Virus record (IMG/VR): IMGVR_UViG_3300044971_004534
Reading direction: 5' to 3' (one strand)
Source of the DNA: a virus
DNA length: 64,000 bases
Position numbers and translations under genes: made by a program. Of the stretch, positions 10,734-63,762 are shown in pieces. Under the pieces are notes generated by a model, which worked only from the letters and a program-made list of their open reading frames with translations, did no database searches and was not told the origin of the DNA. Each line of letters begins with the position of its first letter. Within the stretch, counting starts at the first letter, position 1.

Positions 10734-11432
10734 ATGTCCGATGAATATAAAATCATGAACTGGTATTCAATTATGAAATTAGCTGATGCTCTTACGGGCG
10801 ATGATGACGAGGCGTTGTGGCGGGAGATAGGGGAAGCTGGCCCTCGCCCGCTGGGTGGGTATGGCCGTGAAGACCTGAGCGGGGAATACTCCAGACGCCA
10901 ACAATTCACCCACCGTTATGGTTGGGCTGTTCCTTCACGTGGAGCACTGAAGAAGATGAAGGAATGGATTGGCGGTGGCAAGGTGATAGAGGTGGGAGGG
11001 GGTAGGGGTCTATGGAGTCGCTTGCTTCGTGGTATGGGGGTAACGGTTGAGGTGTCTGATGCGTATGGGGCAAAGGAGAATTTCTTCCTGAAGGACAGGT
11101 TCAAGGAGAAGGACGAGGGTTCTGACCACACGTGGACGGAGGTTCAGCAGATGAGTGGTGAGGACCATGCTGCTACGGGTGGACCGAACGACGTGTTGAT
11201 GATGATCTGGCCGTACATGGAAGACGAGGGTGCAAAGGGAGACTGGCAGGGTGAGGCACTGAGGCGCTTTGGGGGCAGGAAGTTCATCTACGTTGGGGAG
11301 AGTGAAGGTGGGGCCACTGGATCACCTGGTTTGTGGGCTGAGCTGAACAAGGGATGGCGTGTTGTGGGCGAGGTTGAAATTCCTCGTTGGTGGGGAATGC
11401 ACGACTGGGTGGTTTTTTACGAGAGGAATTGA
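10734..11432 (+). CDS. putative SAM-dependent methyltransferase-like protein
   Basis: ORF track; Rossmann motif-I-like KVIEVGGGRGLW followed by VEVSD; SD GGGGGAGG upstream. Confidence 0.5.
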   Translation: MSDEYKIMNWYSIMKLADALTGDDDEALWREIGEAGPRPLGGYGREDLSGEYSRRQQFTHRYGWAVPSRGALKKMKEWIGGGKVIEVGGGRGLWSRLLRGMGVTVEVSDAYGAKENFFLKDRFKEKDEGSDHTWTEVQQMSGEDHAATGGPNDVLMMIWPYMEDEGAKGDWQGEALRRFGGRKFIYVGESEGGATGSPGLWAELNKGWRVVGEVEIPRWWGMHDWVVFYERN

Positions 11433-23947: not shown

Positions 23948-24302
23948 GGGGCTGAACTGGTTTCGATTGCTGAAGGACTATTCGATACTGCACGACGAGG
24001 CTGATGGGCAACTCGTAAAAAGCCGATCAAACAACAACCGCCAACGAATCGTTGATGGCTGTCGCTGCTTGATGCAGCAAAGTTCTTAGAAGTTGGACAC
24101 TTGCTTCTAAGAACTGTCTGAAGTGTCGATCAGCGTACTGCGAAGTTCCAACGCATAAGGCGCTGAAGTTAATATTATATGATTTGGAACTTTCAAAGGA
24201 CTCATGGTACGAGGACTCCTTTGATCGACGGACTCGTACCTAGCGTGGAGAAGGTGCGATAGGACTTTTGCCAACACAGGGGTTCGACTCCCCTCGGCTC
24301 CA
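23948..24302 (+). ncRNA. ssrA: tmRNA (SsrA), tag ADQTTTANESLMAVAA
   Basis: 5' GGGGCTGAACTGGTTTCGA; 3' T-arm GGGGTTCGACTCCCC plus acceptor CGGCTCC-A pairing with the 5' end incl. G3:U; tag ORF GCC 24022 to TGA 24072 after an A-rich tract; no encoded CCA. Confidence 0.8.
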
Positions 24303-24311
24303 TTCAGCAAG

Positions 24312-47258: not shown

Positions 47259-47341
47259 TGGGCAGCATGGCAGGTAGCCAAAGGGTCGTACACTATACCC
47301 CCCACCCGGGGGTGCTTATATAGGGGTGATTTGGCTGGAGG

Positions 47342-47377
47342 GGGATACCTTAGCCCCTCTTCTCTTTTTTGTAATAA
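47342..47377 (+). promoter_or_regulatory. GGGATACCTTAG motif plus TGTAATAA (-10-like), copy 1
   Basis: motif 47342-47353; TAATAA 47372-47377, 18 nt after CCTTAG. Confidence 0.35.
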
Positions 47378-47434
47378 ATCCTGGTTTAAAAAATAGGGGC
47401 ATAAAAATATAAGATTTATGATTTTGAAAAAAGG

Positions 47435-47469
47435 GGGATACCTTAGCGGGAGTGTATGAATGGTAATAT
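47435..47469 (+). promoter_or_regulatory. GGGATACCTTAG motif plus TGGTAATAT (extended -10), copy 2
   Basis: motif 47435-47446; TAATAT 47464-47469, 17 nt after CCTTAG; ATG 47494 downstream. Confidence 0.4.
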
Positions 47470-47493
47470 TTTATTTTTACGGGGGGTGTGTAA

Positions 47494-47856
47494 ATGCAGG
47501 AACAGACTGATGTTATACACAAGCAGCTTGTGGGTTACGGGATAGAGATAGGGCTTCTTATTTCAGGTTTCTTTGGGGCTTTGCTCCTTGTTTCGAAGAA
47601 CGCATCGCAGCGCATGGGGGCAACGGTTGCGTCGCTTCTTGCGGGAACTGCGTGTGCAAACTACCTGACGCCTGTGGTCCTGAACTTTCTTCCTGAATCC
47701 ATCAGGGCTCAAGGAAAGTACGCTGCTGCCTTCATGATGGGATTCATGGGGTTAAAGGGCTTGGAGCTGATGATAGACAAATTTGTTAAAAAGGAAGAGG
47801 AGGGCGGGAAGAAGAATCGTTCCCGTTCATCCACTAAGAGAAAGGGCAAGTCATGA
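47494..47856 (+). CDS. membrane protein, holin-like (3 predicted helices, basic tail)
   Basis: ORF track; helices GIEIGLLISGFFGALLLV, ATVASLLAGTACANYL, AAFMMGFMGLKGL; tail KKNRSRSSTKRKGKS; the function is a guess. Confidence 0.5.
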   Translation: MQEQTDVIHKQLVGYGIEIGLLISGFFGALLLVSKNASQRMGATVASLLAGTACANYLTPVVLNFLPESIRAQGKYAAAFMMGFMGLKGLELMIDKFVKKEEEGGKKNRSRSSTKRKGKS

Positions 47857-48179
47857 ACGTGATTTCTGTGATAAACGCTGTTGTCAACGGGGTAATGGCG
47901 CTTGGTTTTAGTGCATTTCTGGTGTTCCTGTTTGGAAGAGAGAATTCCCTTATTCATAAATTGGGTAATATGAATGTTATTTTCGTGAAGATCATCCTGA
48001 GCATGTGTGCTTCTGGGGCTCTTTACAATGCGTGCATACTCCACGAGCCAGCGCCTTCGGAGCTGTTGCTTAATGCGGGTGTTGCCGCGCTGTTTTGCTG
48101 GGCTTCCGTATTCCATTACATGCGATTCGTGAAGCCAATTAAGAAAAAAGCGGCAAAGAAAAAAAGACGCACAAAGTGA
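47853..48179 (+). CDS. membrane protein (3 predicted helices, basic tail)
   Basis: ORF track; ATGA overlap; tail KKKAAKKKRRTK. Confidence 0.5.
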   Translation: MNVISVINAVVNGVMALGFSAFLVFLFGRENSLIHKLGNMNVIFVKIILSMCASGALYNACILHEPAPSELLLNAGVAALFCWASVFHYMRFVKPIKKKAAKKKRRTK

Positions 48180-48228
48180 TTACTTAAACAAGGAATGCTA
48201 GCGCAGACAGTTCACTTTTTTGTAAAAA

Positions 48229-48262
48229 GGGATACCTTAGTGAATTGGGGCAATAGTAAGAT
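48229..48262 (+). promoter_or_regulatory. GGGATACCTTAG motif plus TAAGAT, copy 3
   Basis: motif 48229-48240; TAAGAT 48257-48262, 16 nt after CCTTAG; ATG 48281 downstream. Confidence 0.35.
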
Positions 48263-49105: not shown

Positions 49106-49591
49106 ATGCAGTACAAATTATCTAAAAGCGAATGGCTCAAAATAGGCGAACAAGCTGGATGGCTGAGGATCAGCGGGGAACAGGCAGTCCTGACGAAGCA
49201 GGGGAAATCAAATGTTGCTGGTGCGGTCTTTCAGGTGATGCGTAAACCCGAGATAGCAAAGAGGATCATTGAACTTTCTAAAATCTGGAATTCCAATTCA
49301 AGCGAGTTTAGCAAGAAGCTTCAAGATCTGGAGCAAGAGATCGTTGTTGACTATCATAATTTTTTGGACACAGGAGCATCAGAAGATTTGTTCATTGACC
49401 GAATCGAGTTACGGAGTATCATTGAAAAAATCATCTATAAAATGCTTGAAGTTGGCGACTTGGGAGTTCGGGAAGCAGGCGAACAAGCTGGATGGCTGAA
49501 GGAAGCCAAGTGCTGGAAGGGCTACAAAGCCGTTGGCATGAAGAAGAAAAAGGGCAAGACCGTTCCCAATTGCGTCCGCAAGGAGAGCTGA
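49106..49591 (+). CDS. QYKLSK-domain protein (module 1, gene A)
   Basis: MQYKLSKSEWLKIGEQAGWLRI N-terminus; C-terminus GEQAGWLKEAKCWKGYKAVGMKKKKGKTVPNCV; internal 22-nt exact repeat 49145/49478. Confidence 0.65.
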   Translation: MQYKLSKSEWLKIGEQAGWLRISGEQAVLTKQGKSNVAGAVFQVMRKPEIAKRIIELSKIWNSNSSEFSKKLQDLEQEIVVDYHNFLDTGASEDLFIDRIELRSIIEKIIYKMLEVGDLGVREAGEQAGWLKEAKCWKGYKAVGMKKKKGKTVPNCVRKES

Positions 49592-50437
49592 ATGGGTTGG
49601 CTCAAGGCGGCGCAGACAAGTGCATGGGGCCAGAACACGAGCAGGGGTGCAAGGGAAATCTACACCGCATTGCGTGAACGTGCCAATCCCCACAGGAGCA
49701 GCGCTGAGCTGAATAAAAAATGGGGGGAGGAAATAGTGAAGATACCGGGTTACGTGTCCCGTTGGTCCGGTGGCAGCTGGGCATACGTGGACTACGACCC
49801 CCAGAAGCGAAAGAACACCGACAGGATGAATCCACTTGCCCACAAGGGAATGGAGTGGAAGCTGTACTTTACCGTCAATCCAAAGGACGGGGGCGCGGAG
49901 AGCATGGGAAACACCCTTGAGGCGTTGAAAGACCTTCCGAGACAGCTGGAGGCAAACCTTGGTCCTCATGGCGTCGCCCTTCTCTACAAGATCCCTGGAA
50001 CCTGGAGTGGATTTTTGCGGGAGAACGACACAGTCGTGATGTATCACCCGTTCGAGCCTCGCAGCAGGTGGACGGACTTCATCTCTTCCGTTGTTCGTGG
50101 CTGGATGGGCAAATGGGGACTGGAGGAAGGGAAGCGTTCGTACAACGAGGGCTTTGACTGGCACGAGCAGACGGAGTACAGGGACGGAACGCAGGTGGAG
50201 CACAAGGAGATGACGGACAGGCTGGGATGGCTGAAGCCAGAGGGATTCATTGCCATGGGGCTGGAAAGGGGTGGTGGATCATTTGGCACTACATTGGCCC
50301 GCTTCATGGAACTTGTTGGCAAGAACCCTGATGACCCGCGCTGGAAGGGCTTGGTGAAGGGGGGAGAGATCAGTATGAAGGAAGCAGCAGACTGGCTTAT
50401 TGGGCACGGCAAAGAGGTAGCACAGGAACTGATGTGA
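49592..50437 (+). CDS. GW-K N-terminus protein (module 1, gene B)
   Basis: MGWLKAAQ start; AAGGAG SD; noticeably more GC-rich than its neighbours. Confidence 0.65.
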   Translation: MGWLKAAQTSAWGQNTSRGAREIYTALRERANPHRSSAELNKKWGEEIVKIPGYVSRWSGGSWAYVDYDPQKRKNTDRMNPLAHKGMEWKLYFTVNPKDGGAESMGNTLEALKDLPRQLEANLGPHGVALLYKIPGTWSGFLRENDTVVMYHPFEPRSRWTDFISSVVRGWMGKWGLEEGKRSYNEGFDWHEQTEYRDGTQVEHKEMTDRLGWLKPEGFIAMGLERGGGSFGTTLARFMELVGKNPDDPRWKGLVKGGEISMKEAADWLIGHGKEVAQELM

Positions 50438-50460
50438 CGAACACCTGTTTTGTTTTTTGT

Positions 50461-50492
50461 ATCCCCCGAAAAATTATGGAGGGGGATTTTTA
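50461..50492 (+). terminator. rho-independent terminator
   Basis: ATCCCCC ... GGGGGAT stem followed by TTTTTATT. Confidence 0.6.
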
Positions 50493-50662
50493 TTATATTG
50501 TTCTGGTTGAAAAAACATCGACCTGTTGAGATGCCCCTAAAAAAATTTTTGGCGCGTTAATACTGGGTTACTGATGGAGGGGGCGGAAATTTTTATAATC
50601 ATCATAAGACCAAAAGGGAAAGACTATTAATCAAAGCAATATAATAAATAGGGAGACTCAAT

Positions 50663-51181
50663 ATGCAATACAAACTATCTAAAGAACAGTGGTTGGAGAT
50701 CGGGCAAAAGGCTGGTTGGTTCAAAATTGCACAGCAAGAAGAGAAAGGACGTGCATTCTTCGTCACTGCTTCAGAAGAAGAAATAAAAAAATATATAGAC
50801 AGCATAGAAGAGTCGTCTGCGCAGGATCTTGCCGACAACCTTGCGGGCGAAAGAGACATGATGAGGGAGAGTGCAAATGGGGCTCGTAGGGCTGCGATGT
50901 CAGCTGATGCAGGCGGAGACGCTGATGACTACAGATTCCAGCTCAAGTTAGAAAAGCAAAAAATTGAAGTTGCAGACAAGTTTGCAAAAGCACTGGCAAT
51001 GCTTACGGTAAGATTTCCGAATGTAAAAACTCCAGAACCAGCCAAGCTCATGGACATGGCAGATTCAATGGAGACACTTTCTCAAAAAGAACATGAGCAA
51101 TCCCGAAGCCAAAGCACCTTACAGGGAGATGCAGAAAAAAGACTGAGACTACCTGGCCTGGGAGCAAACACCCCAAGATAA
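50663..51181 (+). CDS. QYKLSK-domain protein (module 2, gene A)
   Basis: MQYKLSKEQWLEIGQKAGWFKIAQQ; GGGAG SD. Confidence 0.65.
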   Translation: MQYKLSKEQWLEIGQKAGWFKIAQQEEKGRAFFVTASEEEIKKYIDSIEESSAQDLADNLAGERDMMRESANGARRAAMSADAGGDADDYRFQLKLEKQKIEVADKFAKALAMLTVRFPNVKTPEPAKLMDMADSMETLSQKEHEQSRSQSTLQGDAEKRLRLPGLGANTPR

Positions 51182-51199
51182 AAATTATAAGGAAAACAC

Positions 51200-51514
51200 A
51201 TGAACTGGTACAAAAGCGCAAGAAAAAGATACGGATCATTCCATTATGACTTTGACGGAATAGAGCTTATTAATCCCATTTGCTTTTGCTCTGGAACTGC
51301 AAATGTGGAATTTTCAATAGAAAGAGATCCAGGTGACAGATATGAGCCTCCGACCACAGATGTTGATCTCAATGTGACAGTTGAGTCACTTTACTGCACA
51401 GACGCAGAGGGTGAAGAAATTCCAGTCACGAATGAAATGGTTAGGGAGGTTGAGGCCATACTCAGAGATGAAGAACATTTGCGAGAAAAAGCCTTTGACC
51501 ACGAATTTGATTAA
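51200..51514 (+). CDS. NWYK N-terminus protein (module 2, gene B)
   Basis: MNWYKSARKRYG start; ORF track. Confidence 0.6.
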   Translation: MNWYKSARKRYGSFHYDFDGIELINPICFCSGTANVEFSIERDPGDRYEPPTTDVDLNVTVESLYCTDAEGEEIPVTNEMVREVEAILRDEEHLREKAFDHEFD

Positions 51515-51601
51515 TTTGAAATAATTTTTAAAAATTACAGAACATTTTAAATTCATAATCGTACAAATGATGACATCATTTATCACAGGAGATTATGTCC
51601 A

Positions 51602-53059
51602 ATGAAAATACTACTCGCAATTTTAGTAAGTGCTCTTATCGTAAACGGTTCTGAATTTAAGAAAAATACAACAAACAAGAACGTCGTAACCGCCACGGAA
51701 ACCCAGGTGAATACGGCGTTTGTCGGTTTTAATGACGGCGTTTCTCTGGAGGACAAACAGAGGACTATTGCATCTCTTGGGAACATGATTGAGTCTGCAC
51801 ATTATTATGAAAATATCCCCAATTTGGCACTTGTCGTTGTTTCGAGTAACTTTATAACTAACATAGCAGACGTGTCAAGTGCACTTGAAGGAAATGAGAC
51901 TGTTTCATTCTTTGAAATGGACAGAAGATTTACCGCAACATACAGCGAAGTGATTCCAAACGATGCCGGATTCTCACAATGCTGGGGTCACAGAAATACC
52001 GGAGCTTCTGGTGGACTGGTAAACTTTGATATGAATACAACAAATGCATGGTCTATTACTCAAGGACAGCCAACGGTAAAAATACTTGTCTTTGAGACAG
52101 GAATACAGCAAGATCATCCAGATATAAATCAACTGCCAGGAAGAGACTTCACAACAGGTGCAGTGAACGGAGTAAGCGGCGGTGGACCAAGCAACTCTTG
52201 TGACAATCACGGGACTGCCGTTGCAGGATGCATTACAGGCATTATCAACAATTCAATAGGAACCGTGGGAACTGCACCAAATTGCAAAGTCATTTCCGCA
52301 AAAGTTGGCACAGCAATCACTCCATGCAATGGGTCGTGGCAGGGGCAAACATCATGGACTGTAAATGCTATTAACTGGGCAATCGGCAATGGAGTAAGGG
52401 TAACAAACAACAGCAATGATTACGGCACAGCTTCTACGGCAATGTCAAATGCATATTCTGCCGCAAAAAATGCTGGAATAGTTAATTTTGCAAGTTCTGG
52501 AAATTCTGGAAACACTTCTATTGGTTTCCCAGCAAGTGCTTCTGCGGTGAACGCAGTTGGTGCAAGCAGCAGAAACGGACAGAAAGCTTCTTTTTCGTCA
52601 TACGGCACAAAGCTCGCTTTTGTTGCTGCTGGCCAATCGGTTTACACCACAGACAGGACGGGATCAAATGGATACTCTTCAGGTGACTATTCACTTATTG
52701 ACGGAACTTCTTTTTCTTCCCCATATGCCGCTGGTGTCGCAGCACTTATCATTTCAGTGAACCCATCACTTTCTGCAGCACAGGTTGAGTCCATTATGCA
52801 AACAACATGCAAGGACATGGGAGCAGTAGGATTTGACACTCTTACTGGATGGGGAATGCTGAATGCAGAAGCTGCCGTGCTTCTTGCTCGCCCTGTTCCA
52901 TGCCCAGCAGATTTAAATGGAGACAGGTCTGTCAATGGAAGCGATCTTGGTCAATTGTTGTCTTCATGGGGTTCATCTGGATCTGACCTTACTGGAGATT
53001 CAGTCGTCAATGGCGAAGATTTAGGCGTTCTTCTTTCTGCATGGGGGCCTTGTCCGTAA
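51602..53059 (+). CDS. secreted subtilisin-like (S8) serine protease with C-terminal dockerin-like repeats
   Basis: Signal peptide MKILLAILVSALIVNG; catalytic D (VFETGIQQDHPD), H (NHGTAVAG), S (GTSFSSPYAAG); tail DLNGDRSVNGSDLGQLLSSWG / DLTGDSVVNGEDLGVLLSAWG. Confidence 0.9.
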   Translation: MKILLAILVSALIVNGSEFKKNTTNKNVVTATETQVNTAFVGFNDGVSLEDKQRTIASLGNMIESAHYYENIPNLALVVVSSNFITNIADVSSALEGNETVSFFEMDRRFTATYSEVIPNDAGFSQCWGHRNTGASGGLVNFDMNTTNAWSITQGQPTVKILVFETGIQQDHPDINQLPGRDFTTGAVNGVSGGGPSNSCDNHGTAVAGCITGIINNSIGTVGTAPNCKVISAKVGTAITPCNGSWQGQTSWTVNAINWAIGNGVRVTNNSNDYGTASTAMSNAYSAAKNAGIVNFASSGNSGNTSIGFPASASAVNAVGASSRNGQKASFSSYGTKLAFVAAGQSVYTTDRTGSNGYSSGDYSLIDGTSFSSPYAAGVAALIISVNPSLSAAQVESIMQTTCKDMGAVGFDTLTGWGMLNAEAAVLLARPVPCPADLNGDRSVNGSDLGQLLSSWGSSGSDLTGDSVVNGEDLGVLLSAWGPCP

Positions 53060-53068
53060 GGTTGCTGT

Positions 53069-53587
53069 ATGAAAGAACATCCGTATACTCCATTTGATGA
53101 TTTTTTTGCAGAGTTTAGATGGTATCAGAAAAGAGGGATAGCTCCTGATATATCAAAAAGTCAGCTTAAAAAAATATGGAATGAATCTCCTGTAGTATTG
53201 CTTGAACCAAAGAATTTTGATTCATTCAGAAACTTCTCTCCATATCGTGAAAAGCTGAATGGCACAATGGAGAACAGAATAAGAAAACTGCTTGAGATAT
53301 CTGCAACGGAAGATAGAGATGAAGTGTTTGACACCAAGTGGGAATTGAAAAGAAAAAAGAATCCACAAAAATACATTATCAATTTAGCTCAACTTGTGTG
53401 GAACAAAGATGGATACGATCCAGTAAATGTAGTGGACATAAATGGTAAAAGACAATTTATCACAGGTGGCAGAACTCGTGCAGCAATCGGAAAAGCACTG
53501 GGAGTTCCCGTGCTGACTCGCATTGTTTGCCTGGAACATAAGGGAAAATGGTCTAAGCGAGCTCGTGAGCTTATGAATGGAAAATGA
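53069..53587 (+). CDS. hypothetical protein, possible ParB/Srx-like nuclease fold
   Basis: VVDINGKRQFITGGRTRAAIGKALGVPVL resembles the ParB N-terminal GxRRxxAA..LG box; weak. Confidence 0.45.
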   Translation: MKEHPYTPFDDFFAEFRWYQKRGIAPDISKSQLKKIWNESPVVLLEPKNFDSFRNFSPYREKLNGTMENRIRKLLEISATEDRDEVFDTKWELKRKKNPQKYIINLAQLVWNKDGYDPVNVVDINGKRQFITGGRTRAAIGKALGVPVLTRIVCLEHKGKWSKRARELMNGK

Positions 53588-53640
53588 CGCGTTGCAGGTA
53601 ATCATCTGTTAGCGTTGAATATATTTCAATGGAGAATTAT

Positions 53641-54096
53641 ATGCAATATAAATTATCAAAGTCAGAGTGGGAATCTATAGGCGTCAATGCTGGGTGGATG
53701 AAAATTGCTGGACCTGGCGGAAGATTTCAGGCTTCCATGAGTGCAGCAGAGCAAAAGTTGTGGGCAAGCCTAAATCAGCAACAAAAAAATAATTATGCAA
53801 CATTGGATGCTGCCAATAGAGCAAGGGTTGCAGCACTGCCATTGCAGCAAGCACAACAATACCTGAACAGCATAATGCCACCAGCTGGAGGTAAAGTCCC
53901 AACAGCTTCATTTGATAATGAAATAAAGACGGCTCTTAAATTAAATGACAAAACTGATGAAAAAACACCAGAGCAGTATAAGGAAGAGTTTATAGAAAGA
54001 ATGAAGTCCATCGGGATGACAGATGAAGAAATCGAGCGTGCACTAAAATCTGGATATTTAGAAAGAATCATGAAAGGCAGAAAGAATAAAGAATGA
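53641..54096 (+). CDS. QYKLSK-domain protein (module 3, gene A)
   Basis: MQYKLSKSEWESIGVNAGWMKIAG; ATG 53641 6 nt after GGAG (ORF track lists 53629). Confidence 0.65.
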   Translation: MQYKLSKSEWESIGVNAGWMKIAGPGGRFQASMSAAEQKLWASLNQQQKNNYATLDAANRARVAALPLQQAQQYLNSIMPPAGGKVPTASFDNEIKTALKLNDKTDEKTPEQYKEEFIERMKSIGMTDEEIERALKSGYLERIMKGRKNKE

Positions 54097-54860
54097 ACTG
54101 GTATAAGCTGGCTCAAAATAGGTCTTTTTCTTGGGCCAATGTAGAGGGTATTTTATACACACCAGAGGCCATGAGAGACTTGAAAGATTTTAAGAAGTCT
54201 CAGGAAGGAAGAAGTGCTAAGGAAATTAGCATGCTTATTAAAGACGTTATTGATAGAAGACAAATTAATTTACGGAATGTAGAATCCAGGTCTGCTGCAA
54301 ATCCTTACATTCCAAACGGACCAAAAGAAAAAATAAAGATTCACGTATTTGAGCCAAGAGGTGTTGGACTCGCTGAAGGTCCCGGAAAGGCTTACAGAAT
54401 AGGAGCACAACTATGTTCTTTAGGAGGAGAAACTTCAGAATCATCAGACAAATACATTCGAGAGCAAGAATTTGAAAGAACTGGACGTAAATTTTTAATT
54501 ATCAAGAGAGTATTTGAAAATCATGATGAAGATTATTTGCCATGGATTAGTCTATATAATTCTTCTCACGTAGATGATTGTCCAAAATACACATTTCAAA
54601 TTCAAAGAAAAGAAAACCAAGAAAAAATAGTAGATCTCAATCCTCAAAACCCTTTTGACTGGTTAGTAAATTCTGTAAAGATGATACGCGATAGAAATAT
54701 TGAAGGCATCAGCATTCATAAAAGAATGCTTGAAGGAAAATCAGAAGAAGAAATTTTTAGTATTTTAGAATTTATGACAAAAAATCAGGCTAGATTCCCA
54801 TCTAATATATTAAAAGATATAGGCAGGTGGATCGAGGAATACGTGGACAGAACAGGGTAA
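54093..54860 (+). CDS. NWYK N-terminus protein (module 3, gene B)
   Basis: MNWYKLAQNRSF start; ATGA overlap. Confidence 0.6.
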   Translation: MNWYKLAQNRSFSWANVEGILYTPEAMRDLKDFKKSQEGRSAKEISMLIKDVIDRRQINLRNVESRSAANPYIPNGPKEKIKIHVFEPRGVGLAEGPGKAYRIGAQLCSLGGETSESSDKYIREQEFERTGRKFLIIKRVFENHDEDYLPWISLYNSSHVDDCPKYTFQIQRKENQEKIVDLNPQNPFDWLVNSVKMIRDRNIEGISIHKRMLEGKSEEEIFSILEFMTKNQARFPSNILKDIGRWIEEYVDRTG

Positions 54861-55341: not shown

Positions 55342-55620
55342 ATGTCTTTTAGAGAAAAAATCGGATTTGAAAAACAAGGCGACCAATGGGTTCGCACCCA
55401 GGCAGCGCTAAACGCTGCTGCTCCTAAAGCTATAAGTAGAATTGAAAAACTTATATATTCTGCTGATACTGCTGCAGGTATTGGAGACATGAACGGAGCT
55501 GCGTTTCATGCGAATTGGGCCAGAATTGTCATACAGAGTGCACTAGACAATGGTTTTATTACTCAAAATCAGCACTCAACATACATGTCTCAAATTAACG
55601 CTATTTCTCCGCCAGAATAA
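55342..55620 (+). CDS. hypothetical protein
   Basis: ORF track; SD GTGAGG. Confidence 0.55.
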   Translation: MSFREKIGFEKQGDQWVRTQAALNAAAPKAISRIEKLIYSADTAAGIGDMNGAAFHANWARIVIQSALDNGFITQNQHSTYMSQINAISPPE

Positions 55621-55639
55621 TAGAGATATTAGATACAAC

Positions 55640-55663
55640 AAAGGGGAGCTTTTGGCTCCCCTT
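55640..55663. terminator. bidirectional rho-independent terminator
   Basis: AAAGGGGAGC-tttt-GCTCCCCTTT between convergent genes. Confidence 0.8.
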
Positions 55664-55689
55664 TGTTGTATTATAAAATGTAAAAATAA

Positions 55690-56328
55690 TTATTTACGCT
55701 TACGTTGACTAAAGCTGCAAAGACCTGCAATACCAATAAGAGATACTGCTCCTGGTGCAGGAATTGCGTTTACTCCAAAGCCACAGTAGTCAATAAAGTT
55801 TCCCTGAGTAGATCCGCCTGTGGCGCTAACTGCCTGAAATGCGAATCTTGTCAGATTTCCTATACTAACTATAGATCCTGAATGAAATTGCCAAGCAGTT
55901 TCATCTGCAGTAAAGTTGCCCTGATACAGAACAGTGTCATCTCCGTTGCCATACAGCTGATCTGCGCCAAGATCAATTATTGAAAGCTGCATGACATCAA
56001 CTCCGTATCTGCCTCTGTGAGCAAAATGCCAATTAATTGTATTGAAATCTCCTAAGCCATTGACGTGCTGATACAAAGTAGAATCGTAGTTTGCATTGAG
56101 TTCAGCGAATGAACTTCCCTCATATGCAGGCACTCCAAGAAATCCATCTGACCAAATCTCCAAATTGTTGTCTGGTGCTGTGGTTGCCCAGTTCAAAGTT
56201 GGGTCAGAACCAGAAAAGAAACCATAACCCCAGGTCTGAAAATCTTCAAAACCACCGTTTACAAGATCTGCCATACAACTTGTAGAAATAACTAAAGTAG
56301 ACAAAAATGCACAAGCGTATTTAACCAT
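55690..56328 (-). CDS. secreted PEP-CTERM protein with DUF642-like domain
   Basis: Signal peptide, then DLVNGGFE; C-terminus IPAPGAVSLIGIAGLCSFSQRKRK (PEP-CTERM variant: PxPG, helix, basic cluster); SD AAGGAGGG. Confidence 0.75.
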   Translation of the reverse strand: MVKYACAFLSTLVISTSCMADLVNGGFEDFQTWGYGFFSGSDPTLNWATTAPDNNLEIWSDGFLGVPAYEGSSFAELNANYDSTLYQHVNGLGDFNTINWHFAHRGRYGVDVMQLSIIDLGADQLYGNGDDTVLYQGNFTADETAWQFHSGSIVSIGNLTRFAFQAVSATGGSTQGNFIDYCGFGVNAIPAPGAVSLIGIAGLCSFSQRKRK

Positions 56329-56369: not shown

Positions 56370-57164
56370 TTATATTCTTTTACGATTATGAAAAAATTGA
56401 CTAAAAGCAACTACAGTAAAAGCTCCAGGTGATGGAACGGACGGTGGCACATAGTATCCACCAGTGTCTATACCATAGTACTCTCCAAATCCATAGTTAG
56501 TTCCAAGAGCAAGTGTAGTGCTATAGACATCAAATGGCAGCAAACTAGGAGTAAAAAAGGCTGCGTATGGATCTGCAAATCCTGTTTGAGCTGCCAAAGA
56601 GGTAACCGGGGCTAAATTAATATCTGTCGCCAAAGCTGCCTGCACAATTTGCTTTGTCAATTTATTTTGCTCATTAGTAACAACAAGTGGAGCTTCAACT
56701 GGCTTATCTCCACCAATTTTATTTTCTTTGGGAAATCTAGCAAGTTCATCTGAGATCTGATAGCCACGAGTCTGTTCTTTGTTGTCAATTTTGAATGGTT
56801 TCTGCCAGTGCCCTTGATAAGGTTGGCCAAACAAAGCGGAATTTGACTGCTTATTACTATTATTGTCTTTTTGTTCTTGATTTTTTGGAGCGTCTGCTTT
56901 CCCAATATCAGAAGCTGCAGTTATGGCAGAATTCATGCCATTAATCGCTGACATAAGAGACTGTACTCCACGTTCACCAAGCAATGTGATTGCAGAAGTA
57001 CATACGATGGTCATAACGTAAACTTTTTTCTCTAAGCTTTTAACCTTAGATTTTGCTTCTTCACACATTCTGGCACATGAAGAGCATCCCCCAGAAATGC
57101 TCTCAACATGCGAGTGTGAAACTGGCGTAGGCGCAGGCTGCTGAATGTCTTTTTTAATCCCCAT
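56370..57164 (-). CDS. PEP-CTERM-like membrane/secreted protein
   Basis: C-terminus VPSPGAFTVVAFSQFFHNRKRI; internal helix VYVMTIVCTSAITLL. Confidence 0.55.
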   Translation of the reverse strand: MGIKKDIQQPAPTPVSHSHVESISGGCSSCARMCEEAKSKVKSLEKKVYVMTIVCTSAITLLGERGVQSLMSAINGMNSAITAASDIGKADAPKNQEQKDNNSNKQSNSALFGQPYQGHWQKPFKIDNKEQTRGYQISDELARFPKENKIGGDKPVEAPLVVTNEQNKLTKQIVQAALATDINLAPVTSLAAQTGFADPYAAFFTPSLLPFDVYSTTLALGTNYGFGEYYGIDTGGYYVPPSVPSPGAFTVVAFSQFFHNRKRI

Positions 57165-57304: not shown

Positions 57305-60004
57305 ATGTATTTAAAGTATTTTATGAATATAGAAAAAACTGCACAACTTAATTGGTTTCGAGGAATAAGGGATCGCATTCGTGGCAACAAGCCAGATGAA
57401 AGCGGTCAAGAATTGTCATTTAATGAACAAGAACTGCGTGGGCTTGAAGAAATAGAAAGAAGAAAGACTGAAGAAGAAAGAAAAAGAGTTGATAAGCTGG
57501 TCCAAGAATCAAAAGAAAGAGCTGAAAGCTTTGGTAGACCTGACAATATTCCCGGAAAATTTGAATTAAGTAGATCTAGTATTCAAAATATATTGTCTAT
57601 GGACAGAGATACTTTATGGCATAAGCTTTGTGCATCTTTTGAGAATTGTTCTCCTTATGTTTCTGAAACTACGGCACAAAGGGGAAGAATAATAAGATAT
57701 CTTGTAGACACTAGGCAAGGCGATTATCGAGGTGGCTGGGGAAGTGTGCTTAGGAGCATAGATTTTCTACTGCAAGGATTAGAATTAGATATACGTAATG
57801 CAGGCAATAATAGTAAAGCGGCAATATCTCATAATAATATGCAAGAAATTTTTACCAATAGAGATTGGCTCATGGCAAATAAAGATGGAATTCAACGAGC
57901 CTATGCACAAGCATCTCCAGACTCTATTAATAAAGAAGTTTTAAATAAATTTTTAACAAATAAACAATCGTATTATGCTCGACGTGATGCAGCTATAGAA
58001 GTATGGGCATCATTTTTAAAAAATAAATATCAATATTACTATGGAAATACATTAAGTGATCAGTATTTTTATAATATTCATCTGTATGCGGATAGGTTAT
58101 GGGAAGATTTTAAATTATATTTTCGATTGATGTCAGGTAATCTATTCCACAACATAGGCATTCAATTAGGTAAAAAATACTTACCAGAAGATATGCAATC
58201 AATTTCTGATGGTGTTCATGCAATAGATGTAAGTATGTTCGACATAGCAAAGCCAGCTAATTTAATGCAATCACGCAGTAATGCAAGGGGTGAAAATGAT
58301 ATCTTTTATAATTGGACCGTGAATAAATGGAAAGAATTTGTAGAAGATACACATTTAATGCTAAGCGTCTTTGGATTTAATTTAAAAGGTGTGTCAAATA
58401 TTAATAATATAAATGGAGAAAATTTATATTACAATATGATGCAAAAAATAATTATGATAGAAAATATTGTTAATAGAGATCCTTTTATAAGTCATATTTT
58501 TAATAACAGTAGATTAGATTTAGGAGATAGCTATTATATATATGCACAAATTAAAGACAAAATGAGTGCTGATCATAATCCAAATAGAGAAGAATATTTA
58601 GTTTCTATATTAAATCAAATTTATGTTAATCAGCATGGAGGGTACTCAAGAGCAATATCTGAAGCTTCAGATGAAAGTTTGAGATCGGCGGCAGATAGGG
58701 TGCCATTTGCAGTAGAACATATTTTATTGCATTTAGAATTTGGTGAAAATATGTATAATGTTATTAATAATTTTGACCAATATCAATCTGCTCTAAATTC
58801 ATACAGAGAAAAACAGCATTCAGCATTAAAAAAAGTAAGAAACGTTCTAGCCAATCCTGATTTAACACAGATGTCTCCCGAAGAGGCAAGACAGTATTTT
58901 GTAGAAAAACTTAATAGACTAGCGAATAGGGAGTTTGAAGGTAGCAATATCGAAAAGGCAAAGCAAGAGCAAATTCTTGATTCTCCATTTGAGCACACAT
59001 CAGTGATAAGACCGTCTACCTTTCCTGGTCAAGCAGCATTTAATAGCAACTCCTTGCCTGAATTGCAAGGAACTCCAATTTCTTTTAATATAGCAATTTA
59101 TCCAAAAAAGAAAGAAAATGACCCGGAAAACTTTGCACAAGTTCTTGCTCCAGGTGGGCACGCACAAGATGGACTAAACTTTCATCATCAGAATATTCCG
59201 TCATTAGAAAATAAGAAATATTATAGTCATATACTTGGCTGGATAGGTGGATGGGTTGACGTAGTAGGCTCGAACATGTATATAGCAGAAATTCAAAGCG
59301 ACGTTATGCAACATACGTCTTACATGAAAGATCCAGAAAAGTCAAAAACAAAATTGAACGAAGAACTTAAAAAGCAAATGCAAGAATTGCAAAAAGAAAA
59401 AGACAATCTTGCTAAACAATCTACAGAAGGTATAGAAAAATTCTATGATAAAAGAATTGAAGAGTTAGAAAAAAAGAGAGATAGCGCAAATAATGAGGCA
59501 ATGAAGCAGCAAATGGATACTGCAATAAAAAAATTAACAGAACAAAAAAACGCTAAAGAAGATCCGTGGGTTAAACTAAGAAAAAAAATAAAAGACATAG
59601 AAAATGTTATTGTTGAAATTAAAAATCAAATTCAAGAGCTTATTGATTATGAAAGAAACACTAACGATCAATGGAGAAAAAGGCCGCAGTTTGCTGATGT
59701 AAAGTCAAAAATAGAAAATAGATTTTCTGAATATGTCGATGTTTTTTATAATGAAGCAATTTACTATTGTGCTCAACTCAAAATTAAAGGTTTATGGATA
59801 GTGCATTCAGATCTTTTAGCTGCAGTCTGGCGACATTTTGCAACGGCTGATACCGTAGAAATGTATAAGAAAATATACGACAAACGAGCGATGGAGATGG
59901 GAGCAGAAAAGAAGGGCAACTGGTGGCACTTAGATCTTACCAAGAAAATGCCTAAGTATGCAAGCACAAATTGGTATCAAAGGACTAAAAATGGGATGGT
60001 ATAA
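57305..60004 (+). CDS. large hypothetical protein (899 aa), paralog 1
   Basis: ORF track (alt. start ATG 57323, MNIEKTAQLNWFRG); C-terminal ~350 aa colinear with the next gene incl. IAEIQSDVMQ and ENRF motifs; ends STNWYQRTKNGMV. Confidence 0.7.
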   Translation: MYLKYFMNIEKTAQLNWFRGIRDRIRGNKPDESGQELSFNEQELRGLEEIERRKTEEERKRVDKLVQESKERAESFGRPDNIPGKFELSRSSIQNILSMDRDTLWHKLCASFENCSPYVSETTAQRGRIIRYLVDTRQGDYRGGWGSVLRSIDFLLQGLELDIRNAGNNSKAAISHNNMQEIFTNRDWLMANKDGIQRAYAQASPDSINKEVLNKFLTNKQSYYARRDAAIEVWASFLKNKYQYYYGNTLSDQYFYNIHLYADRLWEDFKLYFRLMSGNLFHNIGIQLGKKYLPEDMQSISDGVHAIDVSMFDIAKPANLMQSRSNARGENDIFYNWTVNKWKEFVEDTHLMLSVFGFNLKGVSNINNINGENLYYNMMQKIIMIENIVNRDPFISHIFNNSRLDLGDSYYIYAQIKDKMSADHNPNREEYLVSILNQIYVNQHGGYSRAISEASDESLRSAADRVPFAVEHILLHLEFGENMYNVINNFDQYQSALNSYREKQHSALKKVRNVLANPDLTQMSPEEARQYFVEKLNRLANREFEGSNIEKAKQEQILDSPFEHTSVIRPSTFPGQAAFNSNSLPELQGTPISFNIAIYPKKKENDPENFAQVLAPGGHAQDGLNFHHQNIPSLENKKYYSHILGWIGGWVDVVGSNMYIAEIQSDVMQHTSYMKDPEKSKTKLNEELKKQMQELQKEKDNLAKQSTEGIEKFYDKRIEELEKKRDSANNEAMKQQMDTAIKKLTEQKNAKEDPWVKLRKKIKDIENVIVEIKNQIQELIDYERNTNDQWRKRPQFADVKSKIENRFSEYVDVFYNEAIYYCAQLKIKGLWIVHSDLLAAVWRHFATADTVEMYKKIYDKRAMEMGAEKKGNWWHLDLTKKMPKYASTNWYQRTKNGMV

Positions 60005-63000
60005 GTTTGCACAACTTCATGCAATGAAGTGCTCTCCAGTAAACTTGAAAAAGTTACTGCAATTTGCACACACTCCAGGACAGGCTTATTTGTTCGAGAT
60101 GGGCGAAGAACATTCTGCTATGCAAAAACACATAGAAAGACTTGGCGGAAAAAGATATAAAATTCAATTTTTACTCAACACGTTTGATGCAATGCTTACC
60201 GATCTAGATAACACAAAATTAGATTTTGAAGTAGATCAAGATAGGATTGCAAATCGCATAGATTCCGACTATGTAGAAGAATCATATGGTTATATTTTTG
60301 ATGAAGATGACACTAAGTTTTGGGAAAACATAGATGGCATAAATGATCAAGTTTTAGAATTTATTGAAGAATCTTGGGATGTTTCTGAAGATGACTTTGA
60401 GAGTCGCTTATTTCATTATCCAGTAAGTAGTCGTGAACCAAATAATTCAAAAGAACTCGTTAGTCTCAAAGACATTTCAGAAGAACTGTCTAGTTTTGCG
60501 TATTTTGGAGATATGATTTCTTGCATAGGCAATTTGAAACATGATAAATATGTAGCTCGTGATATCATGAGAGAAATAGCGGATATAGATATTGATTTAA
60601 GGTCAATGGGAGAATCAGCAACCGGCATTCATGTTCATACGTGGGCTAAAAATAAAGGCATTGATCTGACGCTTGCTGTGGTTCAAAAAGCAGCAGGTGG
60701 AGAACAAAATGTTGAGATCGCAAAATACGATCCAGATTCAGCAAAACAAATAGCACAAAAAGCTTACTCTAATGTTGCAAATTCTTGGGTTGACAGTATA
60801 GAAAAATTACCACATTCTAAAACAGATTTAGAAGAAGCAATTGAAGAAGCATTCAGAGATCAGGTAAAAGAATCATGGTGGGAGTCTAACAAACAACGCT
60901 TTATGGAAGATGCAGTTGATAATGAAATTGAAAGTACTGCGGATTCATTTAATTATGATGATAGAAGATGGGCTAAAAACACATTGCCCGCAGAATCAGT
61001 AGACCCAAACGTCAGACATCATGTAAGTAAAACTTTTACGGAAGCATTAAAGGAGCACAGCTGGCTAGATAGAGACGAAGATTCTGGTCATGTACAGGTT
61101 GAAGCTAGTAGCTATTTTGCAAACTTAGGAGTTAAAGATTGGAGTAAAATAGCGGATGATATACAGGAAATGGCGGATGACCACGCAATGACTGGTTACG
61201 AAGATTATGTAAAAGAAATAAGATCATATACATCTATGATTAATTGGATTGTAGCAAGTGATCCAGACTTGTCTGCAATCTTTTCTGATGAAGACGCAGA
61301 CCCGACAACACTTACGCAGACTGCTACGGATTTGGGGCAAATAGTTAAAACTTCATATGAGGTTATATCTCTTATGCCTCAGGACGATGCAAGACGCATG
61401 GAGCAAAGCATAACTGCAGAAAATCCAGAGATTGAAGACTGGATTAAAGCCTTAAGAGAAAGAGAAGAAGTAGAAAGACAGGCGAGAGAAACTCAAGCTG
61501 CCATGCTTGCGGAAGAAGAGGCAAGAAAAGCTATACAAAGATCAAATAGAGAAAGAATTGAAAAAGAAGTTTCTGAAGAGTCTAAAAAAATTAATGATCC
61601 AAATATCGGCTCAAGGTCTTTCACAGAAGAGCAAAAGCAGCAGGCAAAAACTCAAAACATTATTGGTAAACCATTTGAGCACATGTCAACATTGCGGGTT
61701 GATCAAAAATACCCTGGAGTGAGCGCCTTTGTGTTAAAGCCAGTACCTATGGAAAGTGAAGTTCCTTATAAGACTTTCCATATTGCTATATATCCAAAAA
61801 AGGAGCAAAGCGATCCGACAAGACTGCATGATGTCTTTGATAGAAGTGCGGGTTTAAATTTTCATGGATTTAGTTTTCCTGAACATGTGAATGAAAATTA
61901 TTACGATCTTATTGGATGGGTTGGCGGCACTATTGACCTTTATAATAAGATAATGTACGTCACAGAAATACAAAGTGATGTAATGCAAAATACCCCTCGC
62001 ATGAAAGATGTTTCCAAGAGCATTGTTGCTTTGAACGAGGGAAAAAATAGCTTATTAGCTGAAGCTGAAAAAATAAAAACATATATTACCACAAATGATA
62101 TCAATGCATATTATGACAAGAGAATACAAGATTTAAAATTAAAAATTCAATCCATGAGTGACAGTCCTGCTGCAATGCAAATGCAGCAAGCTGTTTTAAA
62201 ATTAGAAGAGTTAAAGAATAAGGGTGTAGACCCTTTTGAAAAAGAAAGACAAAAACTACACGATATTGACAATAAACTTAAAGAGATTAATAGGCAAATA
62301 AATGATATAGAAGAATTTGATAAGAAACCTTCTGCCAAACTAAATAAACCTCATCTTTCAGAATTAAGATCTCGAATAGAAAATAGATTTACTGATTGGG
62401 TAGATACCTTCTATAATGAAATATTTATGTATTGTTCTCGCTTAGGAATAAAACATTTATATATAGCAGCTTCTTCTTATTTGTATCTAACATGGAGACA
62501 GTATGCCAAGGCATCTACACTAGAATTGTATAAAAAGATATATGATACAAAGGCTGAGAAGTACGGAATGCGTAAAGTACATTATAAGGGTGTCACGTAT
62601 TGGCATTTAGATCTATCAGAAAACATGCCAAAGTTTGCGAGCAAAGAAAGGTTACAAATGTCTAAAAATAATTGGTATAGGCAAATTAAAACTGCAATGG
62701 ATTTTAGCAGTATTTACATTGATGATATAAAAAGAAAATTTTCTAATGGAGAGATTACGGAAGAGCAAATGCAAGCGCAGATACGTGAAAGATATATGGA
62801 ACACACACAAGATCCAACTACTCGTGACCCAAAACTGTTTATTATAGAAGCAAAAACTTTCTTTGATACGATTAAGCATATTGAAGGCAGAGAAAGGGGT
62901 GGAGAAGATTCTGAGTTTTCAAAAGCTCAATTTATGAGGGAAGCATTGGGTCAGTTTTTAGAATTTAATGGTAAGAAATATACAGACAGAGACGGCAAGC

Positions 63001-63086
63001 TAGAAGAGCCATTTAAATCAATACTTCAAAGATTGCTTATACAGAAATTTAATTACGACATGGATTTAGATGAAATGGTAGAGTGA
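59991..63086 (+). CDS. large hypothetical protein (1031 aa), paralog 2
   Basis: ATG 59991 (MGWYKFAQL) in frame of ORF-track 59958..63086; VTEIQSDVMQ, ENRF, NNWYRQIK motifs. Confidence 0.7.
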   Translation: MGWYKFAQLHAMKCSPVNLKKLLQFAHTPGQAYLFEMGEEHSAMQKHIERLGGKRYKIQFLLNTFDAMLTDLDNTKLDFEVDQDRIANRIDSDYVEESYGYIFDEDDTKFWENIDGINDQVLEFIEESWDVSEDDFESRLFHYPVSSREPNNSKELVSLKDISEELSSFAYFGDMISCIGNLKHDKYVARDIMREIADIDIDLRSMGESATGIHVHTWAKNKGIDLTLAVVQKAAGGEQNVEIAKYDPDSAKQIAQKAYSNVANSWVDSIEKLPHSKTDLEEAIEEAFRDQVKESWWESNKQRFMEDAVDNEIESTADSFNYDDRRWAKNTLPAESVDPNVRHHVSKTFTEALKEHSWLDRDEDSGHVQVEASSYFANLGVKDWSKIADDIQEMADDHAMTGYEDYVKEIRSYTSMINWIVASDPDLSAIFSDEDADPTTLTQTATDLGQIVKTSYEVISLMPQDDARRMEQSITAENPEIEDWIKALREREEVERQARETQAAMLAEEEARKAIQRSNRERIEKEVSEESKKINDPNIGSRSFTEEQKQQAKTQNIIGKPFEHMSTLRVDQKYPGVSAFVLKPVPMESEVPYKTFHIAIYPKKEQSDPTRLHDVFDRSAGLNFHGFSFPEHVNENYYDLIGWVGGTIDLYNKIMYVTEIQSDVMQNTPRMKDVSKSIVALNEGKNSLLAEAEKIKTYITTNDINAYYDKRIQDLKLKIQSMSDSPAAMQMQQAVLKLEELKNKGVDPFEKERQKLHDIDNKLKEINRQINDIEEFDKKPSAKLNKPHLSELRSRIENRFTDWVDTFYNEIFMYCSRLGIKHLYIAASSYLYLTWRQYAKASTLELYKKIYDTKAEKYGMRKVHYKGVTYWHLDLSENMPKFASKERLQMSKNNWYRQIKTAMDFSSIYIDDIKRKFSNGEITEEQMQAQIRERYMEHTQDPTTRDPKLFIIEAKTFFDTIKHIEGRERGGEDSEFSKAQFMREALGQFLEFNGKKYTDRDGKLEEPFKSILQRLLIQKFNYDMDLDEMVE

Positions 63087-63309: not shown

Positions 63310-63762
63310 ATGTTTAAAGTAAATGATATTAAAATATCAAAATATGACTGGATCAATATCGGCATACATGCTGGTTGGATCAAGACATCTCATATGGGGC
63401 ACGCTCCAAATGTCTACGATATGACTGCGCATATGTTGCATTACAGAAGCTTGTACGAAGAACACATCAGTCCTGTTATAAAAAAATTGGCAGTTCATTT
63501 GCAAAAAGGTCTTTTTAATAAAGAAATGGCTTTGGCTTCTTTTGAAAGAATTGCTCATAAAGGAATAGAAATGTATATTAAGGAGCATGGTGAAATAGAC
63601 GTGACTCCAATGATTGTAAGATCTATAGCTGAAAACTTATTAGACAACTACATGGAAGAGATAACAGATGAGCTTTTGACTATAAGTGACGAAAATATTG
63701 TGTCGAAAAATAAGGATGAGAAGAAAAAAGCTCCCAATAAACGCAGAGACCGTAATCCATAG
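63310..63762 (+). CDS. QYKLSK-domain-related protein (divergent)
   Basis: MFKVNDIKISKYDWINIGIHAGWIKTSH N-terminus. Confidence 0.6.
   Translation: MFKVNDIKISKYDWINIGIHAGWIKTSHMGHAPNVYDMTAHMLHYRSLYEEHISPVIKKLAVHLQKGLFNKEMALASFERIAHKGIEMYIKEHGEIDVTPMIVRSIAENLLDNYMEEITDELLTISDENIVSKNKDEKKKAPNKRRDRNP

Follow-up and report, generated by a model that had tools for sequence, protein, structure and literature searches.

In the IMG/VR virus record IMGVR_UViG_3300044971_004534, three pairs of neighbouring genes between positions 49106 and 54860 raise the question of what a protein start might do that is kept on otherwise unrelated proteins. The first gene of each pair (A1-A3) starts with the pattern MQYKLSK(S/E)(E/Q)W..IG..AGW.(K/R), the second (B1-B3) with M(N/G)W(Y/L)K. 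An initial annotation of the DNA under study (one stretch of 64,000 nucleotides (nt), hereafter the window) had read these genes as a modular system, in which a conserved N-terminal element sits on variable bodies and each A gene forms a functional unit with the B gene that follows it. The first half of this reading stood: the N-terminal element is conserved on unrelated, fast-changing bodies. The second half, the functional pair, did not. The A and B starts are very likely two versions of one peptide tag, which probably serves as a docking or address signal of some sort.

Two probable forms of one tag

The coordinates, lengths, motifs and spacings first annotated for the three pairs were all correct. 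A1 (49106-49591, 161 residues) carried a short A-type tag in residues 1-25 (nt 49106-49180), followed by a 111-codon in-frame insert, a second GEQAGWLK near the C-terminus and, closing the protein, the Cys-flanked basic motif CWKGYKAVGMKKKKGKTVPNCV (nt 49511-49576), which had been recognised from the start. A2 (50663-51181, 172 residues) consisted of the short tag MQYKLSKEQWLEIGQKAGWFKIAQ and an unrelated body, and A3 (53641-54096, 151 residues) likewise of a short tag and a body. The B genes encoded a 281-residue protein of no known family with the tag MGWLKAAQ (B1, 49592-50437), a 104-residue protein with MNWYKSAR (B2, 51200-51514) and a 255-residue protein with MNWYKLAQ (B3, 54093-54860). 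Within the pairs the spacing from A to B was 0 nt, 18 nt and an ATGA overlap, respectively. The divergent A-type start reported at 63310 was also real; this gene, A4 (63310-63762), carried the longer tag MFKVNDIKISKYDWINIGIHAGWIKT ahead of a body of three helices. All copies in the window were on the plus strand, between 48.6 and 63.4 kb, and the strict pattern had no copy in the first 48 kb of the window or in the 10 kb downstream of it.

Several copies had been overlooked by the initial annotation: the second GEQAGWLK in A1, those in two giant paralogs and a degenerate copy at 10734. Giant paralog 1 (57305-60004, plus strand, 899 residues) contained LNWFRGIRD near its N-terminus (nt 57350), and its conserved C-terminal domain of approximately 370 residues closed with the tag-like ...TNWYQRTKNGMV (nt 59969-60001). 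Giant paralog 2 (59991-63086, plus strand, 1031 residues) carried the B-type tag MGWYKFAQ at Met1, the fourth B-type start in the window, and an internal NNWYRQIKTAM (nt 62670) exactly at the position equivalent to the end of giant 1. The two giants shared 40% identity across the C-terminal domain. In an AlphaFold2 model (predicted local distance difference test (pLDDT) score 74), the tag-like motif of giant 1 formed the terminal helix; the model had no fold match in the PDB and weak matches in BFVD. The two genes overlapped by 14 nt; NWYQRTKNGMV at the end of giant 1 was encoded 22 nt away from the initial MGWYKFAQ of giant 2, in a different frame. A PD-(D/E)xK-like motif suspected in the giants (GW.GG.VD...MY.xEIQSD) was unsupported. 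The open reading frame (ORF) at 10734-11432 (plus strand), which had a weak methyltransferase match, began with a possible degenerate B-type tag, MSDEYKIMNWYSIMKLADAL (MNWYSIMKLA; copy MNWYSIMKLADAL), and its membership of the tag family is uncertain.

The shared starts were not a product of chance. The DNA pattern for W-x2-I-G-x3-G-W occurred four times in the window, against 0.01 expected from shuffles, and that for M-[NG]-W-[YL]-K four times, against 0.08 expected. The bodies were unrelated between copies, as had been annotated: after removal of the tags, no pair of A bodies or of B bodies reached a BLASTP E-value below 1. The tag-coding sequences of the window A genes were just 75-78% identical, with no long identical runs, and therefore the conservation was at the level of the peptide rather than that of a DNA repeat. 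Among the B tags, all eight of the eight synonymous codon combinations of ATGAAYTGGTAYAAR were found. This synonymous variation, together with the low DNA identity, ruled out a DNA repeat or mobile element behind the shared starts.

The full extent of the A domain was recovered with an A-motif scan of IMG/VR, which gave 37 matches that were aligned. The full form had approximately 35 residues with the consensus MK(I/L)(V/I)KTASGKQTIK(I/M)SK(K/S)EWxxIGKKAGW(M/L/I)KxAQ, in which W, G, G and W were invariant; the MQYKLSK... copies of the window were without its first ten residues. The minimal B form, M-N-W-Y-K-x-(A/I)-(Q/K), matched the final eight residues of the full domain, a resemblance of the B-type starts to the end of the A-type motif (GW.K.A) that had not been remarked upon before. 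In the A tail, GW-x-K-x-A-(Q/E), the K was present in 134 and the A in 116 of approximately 165 copies. Both forms occurred in the same clusters in three loci (L012, L026 and L001), and mini-proteins consisting solely of a tag, in either form, and a CWxGY...VPNCV motif were found (L016 3738, P0032, P0036 and P0038). G6PD orthologs (46% identity) carried the B tag in locus L012 and an A-like tag in locus L064. A and B are with high probability two versions of one tag.

In its N-terminal position the tag began directly at Met1 and was appended closely to the bodies. It lay 3-8 residues ahead of the first strand of known folds, namely the beta-1 strand of G6PD and of P-loop proteins. C-terminal copies were present in both giants and in L040 6623, and internal copies also occurred; 24 of the 139 best new matches held two or three tag copies, arranged as [tag-body]n. 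The internal, C-terminal and multiple copies argue against an initiation signal or an N-degron. The full tag contained nine Lys, with a net charge of approximately +6 in 35 residues, and two invariant Trp. In the AlphaFold2 model of A4 (mean pLDDT 76), the tag formed a separate short helix at residues 11-20 (pLDDT 80-85), the body consisted of three long helices, and the confidence dipped (pLDDT 61-71) at residues 21-40, in the linker between the tag helix and the body. The body of A4 had no significant fold match.

In IMG/VR, the strict MNWYKxAQ DNA pattern gave 46 matches in 36 stretches, chiefly on contigs of 43-548 kb that often contained several matches each. The fetched loci and the window together encoded 109 distinct proteins starting with M-[NG]-W-[YLF]-[KRQ], including runs of 16 consecutive genes in locus L029 and seven in L014. 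An A-domain profile (exhaustive HMMER search, E<=1e-3) matched at least 2014 protein clusters at 50% identity, and in 127 of the 139 best new matches the domain started at most 25 residues from the N-terminus of the protein, in agreement with the N-terminal element first annotated. In 596 Gb of cellular genomes, the MNWYKxAQ pattern had 12 matches, against approximately 17 expected by chance according to our own arithmetic, and genuine clusters were limited to two short phage-like contigs of metagenome-assembled genomes. Judging by these scans, the tag is viral and widespread, and it appears to be limited to one viral lineage, uncultivated huge phages.

The 16 consecutive paralogs of locus L029 (387-8307) all started with MNW(Y)(K/R)x(I/A)Kx(A)(L/V)P. 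Most had a second motif, Y-x-(D/N)-(I/V)-G-H, 15-30 residues further on, and the IGH motif also followed the tag in unrelated contigs (L018, L030, L041, L044 and L046).

A tblastn search of 50,697 GenBank phage records returned no match for the A domain, the C-terminal domain of the giants or a member of the L029 family. A profile search of the PDB with the A domain gave chance-level matches alone (E>0.6), and the tag peptides matched no Pfam family up to E=10. The A and B proteins of the window, the giants and the isolated tag peptides had no family in Pfam, PHROGs or NCBIfam, except for the C-terminal motif of A1, which matched six PHROG families of unknown function. Peptide strings of the tag and of the VPNCV motif led to no relevant paper in the searchable full-text literature. 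Likenesses of the A domain to a ubiquitin hairpin, LysM, helix-turn-helix or Sso7d were seen by eye only, had no search support and were dropped. The set of tagged proteins is apparently undescribed so far.

Possible functions of the tag

The tagged proteins were diverse. Among 96 of them, the Pfam domains found repeatedly were GNAT (four), AAA_33 (three), cREC_REC, DUF5661 and methyltransferase (two each), and further matches were to G6PD, 2-hydroxyacid dehydrogenase, the Thoeris inhibitor Tad6, ART-PolyVal, PolyA_pol nucleotidyltransferase, HATPase_c, SLT, Zeta toxin and HicA. The PHROG assignments included polynucleotide kinase, ATPase, dehydrogenase, endolysin, toxin, DNA methyltransferase and a T7 gp0.7-like kinase. 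A-tagged proteins were chiefly small (median 131 residues) and unannotated; B-tagged proteins had a median of 167 residues, and most had one Pfam domain or none. The cargo genes lay in dense same-strand clusters, and the set was very large and turned over fast. Large proteins encoded in or beside such clusters (L058 3315-5174, L063 1707-4145 and L025 611-4315) had a C-terminal domain resembling CCA-adding enzymes and polyA polymerases, with weak PDB matches (E 1e-4 to 3e-3); the last of these proteins itself carried an MNWYKKAQ tag.

The strict conservation of the tag, its simple appending at N-terminal, C-terminal and internal sites, and its presence on thousands of unrelated proteins of one lineage fit an address peptide with one receptor; they fit an initiation signal, an N-degron or a Sec signal poorly. 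On this view, a single conserved receptor, probably encoded by the phage, would recognise the tag as a docking peptide. Some kind of docking or addressing role is, in our estimate, probable. The most likely destination would be the interior of the assembling head, where effectors bearing the tag (enzymes of counter-defence, host takeover, RNA repair and wall cutting, together with small proteins of no assigned function) would be packaged and delivered with the DNA, as the capsid targeting sequence (CTS) of phage T4 does for hypervariable internal proteins and for Alt. Four lines favour packaging into the virion: the precedent of the T4 CTS, the partial overlap of the cargo with the effector domains of polyvalent proteins, the weak fold matches of the C-terminal domain of the giants, and the crowded heads of giant phages. 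By analogy, the virion is a possible destination. Taken as a whole, a portable docking tag, most likely acting as a virion-packaging signal, is the explanation we consider best, and we put it forward tentatively.

In T4, the CTS is the sole conserved part of hypervariable internal counter-defence proteins, and the loci encoding internal proteins are hyperplastic between related phages (PMC3012670). The tagged proteins described here followed the same scheme as IPI-III and Alt, namely a short N-terminal peptide that alone is conserved on clustered, hypervariable, unrelated proteins. The T4 set includes an ADP-ribosyltransferase and counter-defence factors, and the set described here likewise contained an ADP-ribosyltransferase (ART) domain, Tad6 and many small proteins without assignment; the indels directly behind the tag (see below) parallel the hyperplastic loci of T4. 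Unlike the single T4 signal, the tag had two nested forms (8 and approximately 35 residues) and occurred internally, C-terminally and in multiple copies. By inspection, its consensus (MNWYKxAQ or ...GWxKxA(Q/E)) showed no resemblance to the T4 CTS (approximately MKTYQEFIAE), and no conserved (L/I)-x-E prohead-protease site followed it. The cargo was also far larger than that of T4 and included metabolic enzymes, and its packaging would be a matter of analogy.

Polyvalent proteins, in which 2-15 effector domains are fused per polypeptide, are predicted to be packaged and injected by phages (Iyer, Burroughs, Anand, de Souza, Aravind 2017; PMC5512222). Of the effector types typical of injected proteins, which also include ParB-like domains, several were seen among the tagged proteins (ART-PolyVal, Pol-beta-type nucleotidyltransferase, methyltransferases and the peptidoglycan hydrolase SLT). 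Large proteins of 900-1200 residues were present within the same clusters, and the fold of the C-terminal domain of the giants weakly resembled that of phage proteins bearing the annotation 'large polyvalent protein associated domain' (Foldseek E 3e-3 to 4.5e-3, TM 0.23-0.27). In contrast to polyvalent proteins, the domains were mostly encoded by separate small genes, each with its own tag, and no linkage to MuF or portal genes was found. As for capacity, the heads of giant phages can contain approximately 50 protein species, with ejection proteins amounting to more than 40 MDa (PMC7411985).

The cargo peptides of encapsulins and bacterial microcompartments and the N-terminal packaging signals of extracellular contractile injection systems (eCIS) offer a further comparison. 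There, a short terminal helix with a flexible linker addresses unrelated enzymes to one container, and such encapsulation peptides can sit at either terminus. In contrast to these systems, the surroundings of the tagged genes showed no gene for a shell, an encapsulin or an eCIS, and the sequence of the tag is unrelated to such peptides.

The motif at the C-terminus of A1, CWxGYxxxGxKxxxGKxVPNCV, also occurred in proteins of cultured phages (PHROGs 9737, 4359, 727, 28131, 22379 and 38880), which carried neither an A nor a B tag. It was located at L080 2501-2575 and L081 2501-2581, and its carriers included hypothetical proteins of the cyanophages S-RIM14 and S-CREM1. In the Actinomycetia phage DSL-LC01, the gene for the protein with the motif came three genes after the portal gene and immediately before a gene for a 3289-residue protein.

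Several observations weigh against packaging into the virion. No linkage of the tagged clusters to head genes was found, and no tagged protein fell into the structural category in the PHROG census. Two of the large neighbours had no match among the GenBank phages by tblastn, and PDB searches of the large neighbours gave weak CCA/polyA-polymerase-like matches for two and nothing for a third. Neither the T4 (L/I-x-E) nor the phiKZ (S/A/G-x-E) protease site was conserved after the tag, and the structural similarity to polyvalent proteins was weak. G6PD and 2-hydroxyacid dehydrogenase would be odd as virion cargo, and a single genome may have rather many tagged genes for their products to be capsid cargo. 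In proteins of the multi-copy [tag-body]n type, the tag looks more like a binding module than like a simple terminal signal.

The tag might instead localise its cargo, with no packaging involved, to nucleic acid or to a universal hub of the host, for example the ribosome or tRNA, RNA polymerase, the inner membrane or the nucleoid, so that enzymes would meet their substrates within the infected cell. With its nine Lys and two invariant Trp, the full tag has a strongly basic and aromatic character, and it is frequently joined straight to the very basic CWxGY...VPNCV motif. Many cargos are directed at RNA or translation (polynucleotide-kinase-like AAA_33, cREC_REC, CCA/polyA-polymerase-type, HicA and GNAT), the multi-copy proteins would suit multivalent binding, and conservation across phages of widely differing G+C content would suit a universal target. 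However, searches of Pfam, NCBIfam and the PDB revealed no likeness of the tag to known domains that bind nucleic acids or membranes, its minimal form of eight residues is very short for autonomous binding of nucleic acid, and it is not obvious why G6PD and 2-hydroxyacid dehydrogenase would be placed on RNA or DNA. We regard such localisation as unlikely.

A handle for a protease, unfoldase or chaperone appears improbable. As a degron or for activation, it would set the timing of early, potentially toxic proteins or restrict their activity. The N-W-Y-K-(hydrophobic) start loosely fits the ClpX N-motif-1 pattern (polar, hydrophobic, hydrophobic, basic, hydrophobic), reportedly described by Flynn et al. 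in 2003, and toxins are among the cargo (Zeta, HicA and ART). Yet the motif also occurs internally, C-terminally and in multiple copies, the A form places it approximately 28 residues from the N-terminus, the tag is far more strictly conserved than known degrons, and stable metabolic enzymes are tagged too.

Two classes of known signals were rejected. Sec-type and KxYKxGKxW/YSIRK signal peptides did not fit by inspection, with no hydrophobic stretch after the tag in most proteins; a transmembrane helix followed the tag in two (L019 5325 and L036 2670). The secreted S8 peptidase encoded in the same cluster was untagged, which was counted against a Sec-type signal. Choline-binding or cell-wall-binding repeats (CW_binding_1; GWxK...WYY) had no Pfam match, either with the tag peptides (up to E=10) or with the window proteins.

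The sequence directly behind the tag was unusually plastic, with three alleles of A1 and two of A3. A1 was found as a protein of 50 residues, consisting of the tag and CWKGY only (P0036/L078), as the 161-residue protein of the window and as a 124-residue protein with a different insert (P0141). In the alignment with the relative L078, the 333-nt in-frame insert of A1 was missing; in the window it was flanked by an exact 23-nt direct repeat, AGGCGAACAAGCTGGATGGCTGA, within the tag-coding sequence (49144-49166 and 49477-49499, plus strand). The A3 variants P0031 and P0004 were without residues 24-98, an indel immediately after the tag. This indel hot spot shows how such repertoires turn over. 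It also lends itself to the explanation that the conserved ends serve chiefly as recombination handles (homology arms for cassette exchange), the peptide tag being a by-product; the exact repeat and the indels lying exactly behind the tag in at least three A1 and two A3 alleles would be expected from it. Against this, the window tags have the low DNA identity described above and no long identical runs, every synonymous codon combination is in use, the motif is kept across window regions of approximately 32% to 50% G+C, and the invariant W, G, G and W imply selection on the peptide. We therefore find recombination handles quite improbable as the explanation of the tag; recombination at the tag is more likely a consequence of the tag than the reason for it.

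Huge phages are known almost exclusively from metagenomes, and a docking tag would provide a rare handle on their genes, most of which are of unassigned function, by grouping proteins into one functional class. A shared tag predicts a common partner for its bearers, and it would single out a group of proteins in which counter-defence and host-takeover enzymes are plentiful (Tad6, ART, GNAT, kinases and RNA-repair domains). If the virion is the destination, the set of effectors injected by uncultivated phages could be listed from sequence alone, and the tag would offer a small loading peptide for protein delivery. A clade-wide addressing system of uncultivated huge phages is more doubtful. In it, a tag of 8-35 residues would mark thousands of proteins in all and dozens in each genome, ranging from anti-Thoeris and ADP-ribosyltransferase effectors to G6PD, and would bring them to a single destination made by the phage, either the inside of the capsid for co-injection or an intracellular compartment or scaffold not yet recognised. 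In that case the tag would be a signature, readable from metagenomes, of an injected or compartmentalised proteome, and it could serve as a portable loading signal for engineering.

Gene order of A and B genes

The order of tagged genes was surveyed in the non-redundant fetched loci and the window, with a crude gene caller that accepted ATG starts only (30 A genes and 108 B genes). The gene following an A gene was another A gene in seven cases, an untagged gene in 13 and a B gene in three, while the locus ended or the strand switched in seven. All three A-then-B cases were those of the window. None of the 27 A genes outside it preceded a B gene under this caller; a single B gene with a GTG start followed an A gene in locus L012 (10078). 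B genes were preceded by another B gene in 44 of 108 cases and by an untagged gene in 47.

The closest related phage, from a JGI freshwater metagenome (locus L001), retained homologs of the window genes in another order. Its A3 homolog was followed by a gene for an S8 peptidase, and its tagged B3 homolog (7000) was preceded by that peptidase gene. The B2 homolog (3870) was likewise tagged and was preceded by another B gene. The MNWLK or MNWYK starts in this locus belonged to a 2-hydroxyacid dehydrogenase, a 181-residue protein, the B2 homolog, a 178-residue protein and the B3 homolog. In the window itself, A4 was followed by an untagged gene.

The initial annotation had suggested that each A gene and the following B gene form a functional two-gene module of the effector/immunity, cargo/chaperone or adaptor kind. 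In its favour, three of the four A genes of the window have a B gene within 0-18 nt or in ATGA overlap, and a mini-A1 is located directly upstream of B1 in a near-identical relative, which is the sole relative to retain this neighbourhood. The adjacency was not conserved elsewhere, B genes lie largely in B-B arrays, the A3 and B3 homologs of the related phage are split by a peptidase gene, and the same enzyme, G6PD, may bear either tag. Such a module is highly improbable and has been largely refuted by the neighbourhood survey: A and B are very probably not a two-gene module, and their alternating order here is a local arrangement within a tagged cluster, not a functional pair.

Genomic setting of the window

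The window appears to be one portion of the genome of a huge phage. Seven tRNA genes (Glu, Gly, Arg, Met, two Leu and Lys) and a tmRNA gene (23948-24305; tag peptide ANESLMAVAA) were interspersed among the protein-coding genes between 11527 and 30855, as is typical of huge phages. Accessory genes of phage type encoded an endonuclease VII, a DnaB-like helicase, a DUF2201 metallopeptidase/VWA protein, a DUF932 protein and a phosphoesterase. No close relative of the window was present among the 50,697 GenBank phage records, and a megablast search with 47-64 kb gave no match. The same sequence was carried by a 280-kb NCBI contig (JBFDDZ010001906.1), of which locus L009 corresponds to the window from 53310 on. 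Along the last 17 kb, the G+C content dropped from approximately 55-60% (57-60% at 44-48 kb) to 32-37% (54-64 kb), and the tagged cluster was located in the low-G+C part.

Between B2 and A3, an untagged gene (51602-53059) encoded an S8 peptidase that is subtilisin-like and has a signal peptide at its N-terminus; this peptidase was retained in the related phage L001 at another position within the cluster. Its C-terminus had two dockerin-like repeats (DLNGDRSVNGSDLGQLLSSWG...), as judged by eye. The next ORF, at 53069, gave a ParB-like impression that was not confirmed by Pfam. Two minus-strand ORFs (55690-56328 and 56370-57164) ended in PEP-CTERM-like tails (PAPGAVSLIGIAGLCSFSQRKRK and PSPGAFTVVAFSQFFHNRKRI) that Pfam did not confirm, and the first of them additionally had a signal peptide. 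If real, the tails would hint at a host with an exosortase.

Intergenic short repeats preceded the tagged cluster. Between 47130 and 47250, AGAAAGCCGGTATGGAA occurred three times with a spacing of 32 nt (47141, 47173 and 47205). In the region 47339-48241, AGGGGGATACCTTAGC was present at 47339 and 47432, with a variant at 48226. Within the cluster, a 17-nt inverted repeat without mismatches and with a loop of 5 nt (ATACAACAAAGGGGAGC / GCTCCCCTTTGTTGTAT; 55633-55671) was located between the gene at 55342-55620 and the convergent minus-strand genes, and it is probably a bidirectional terminator.

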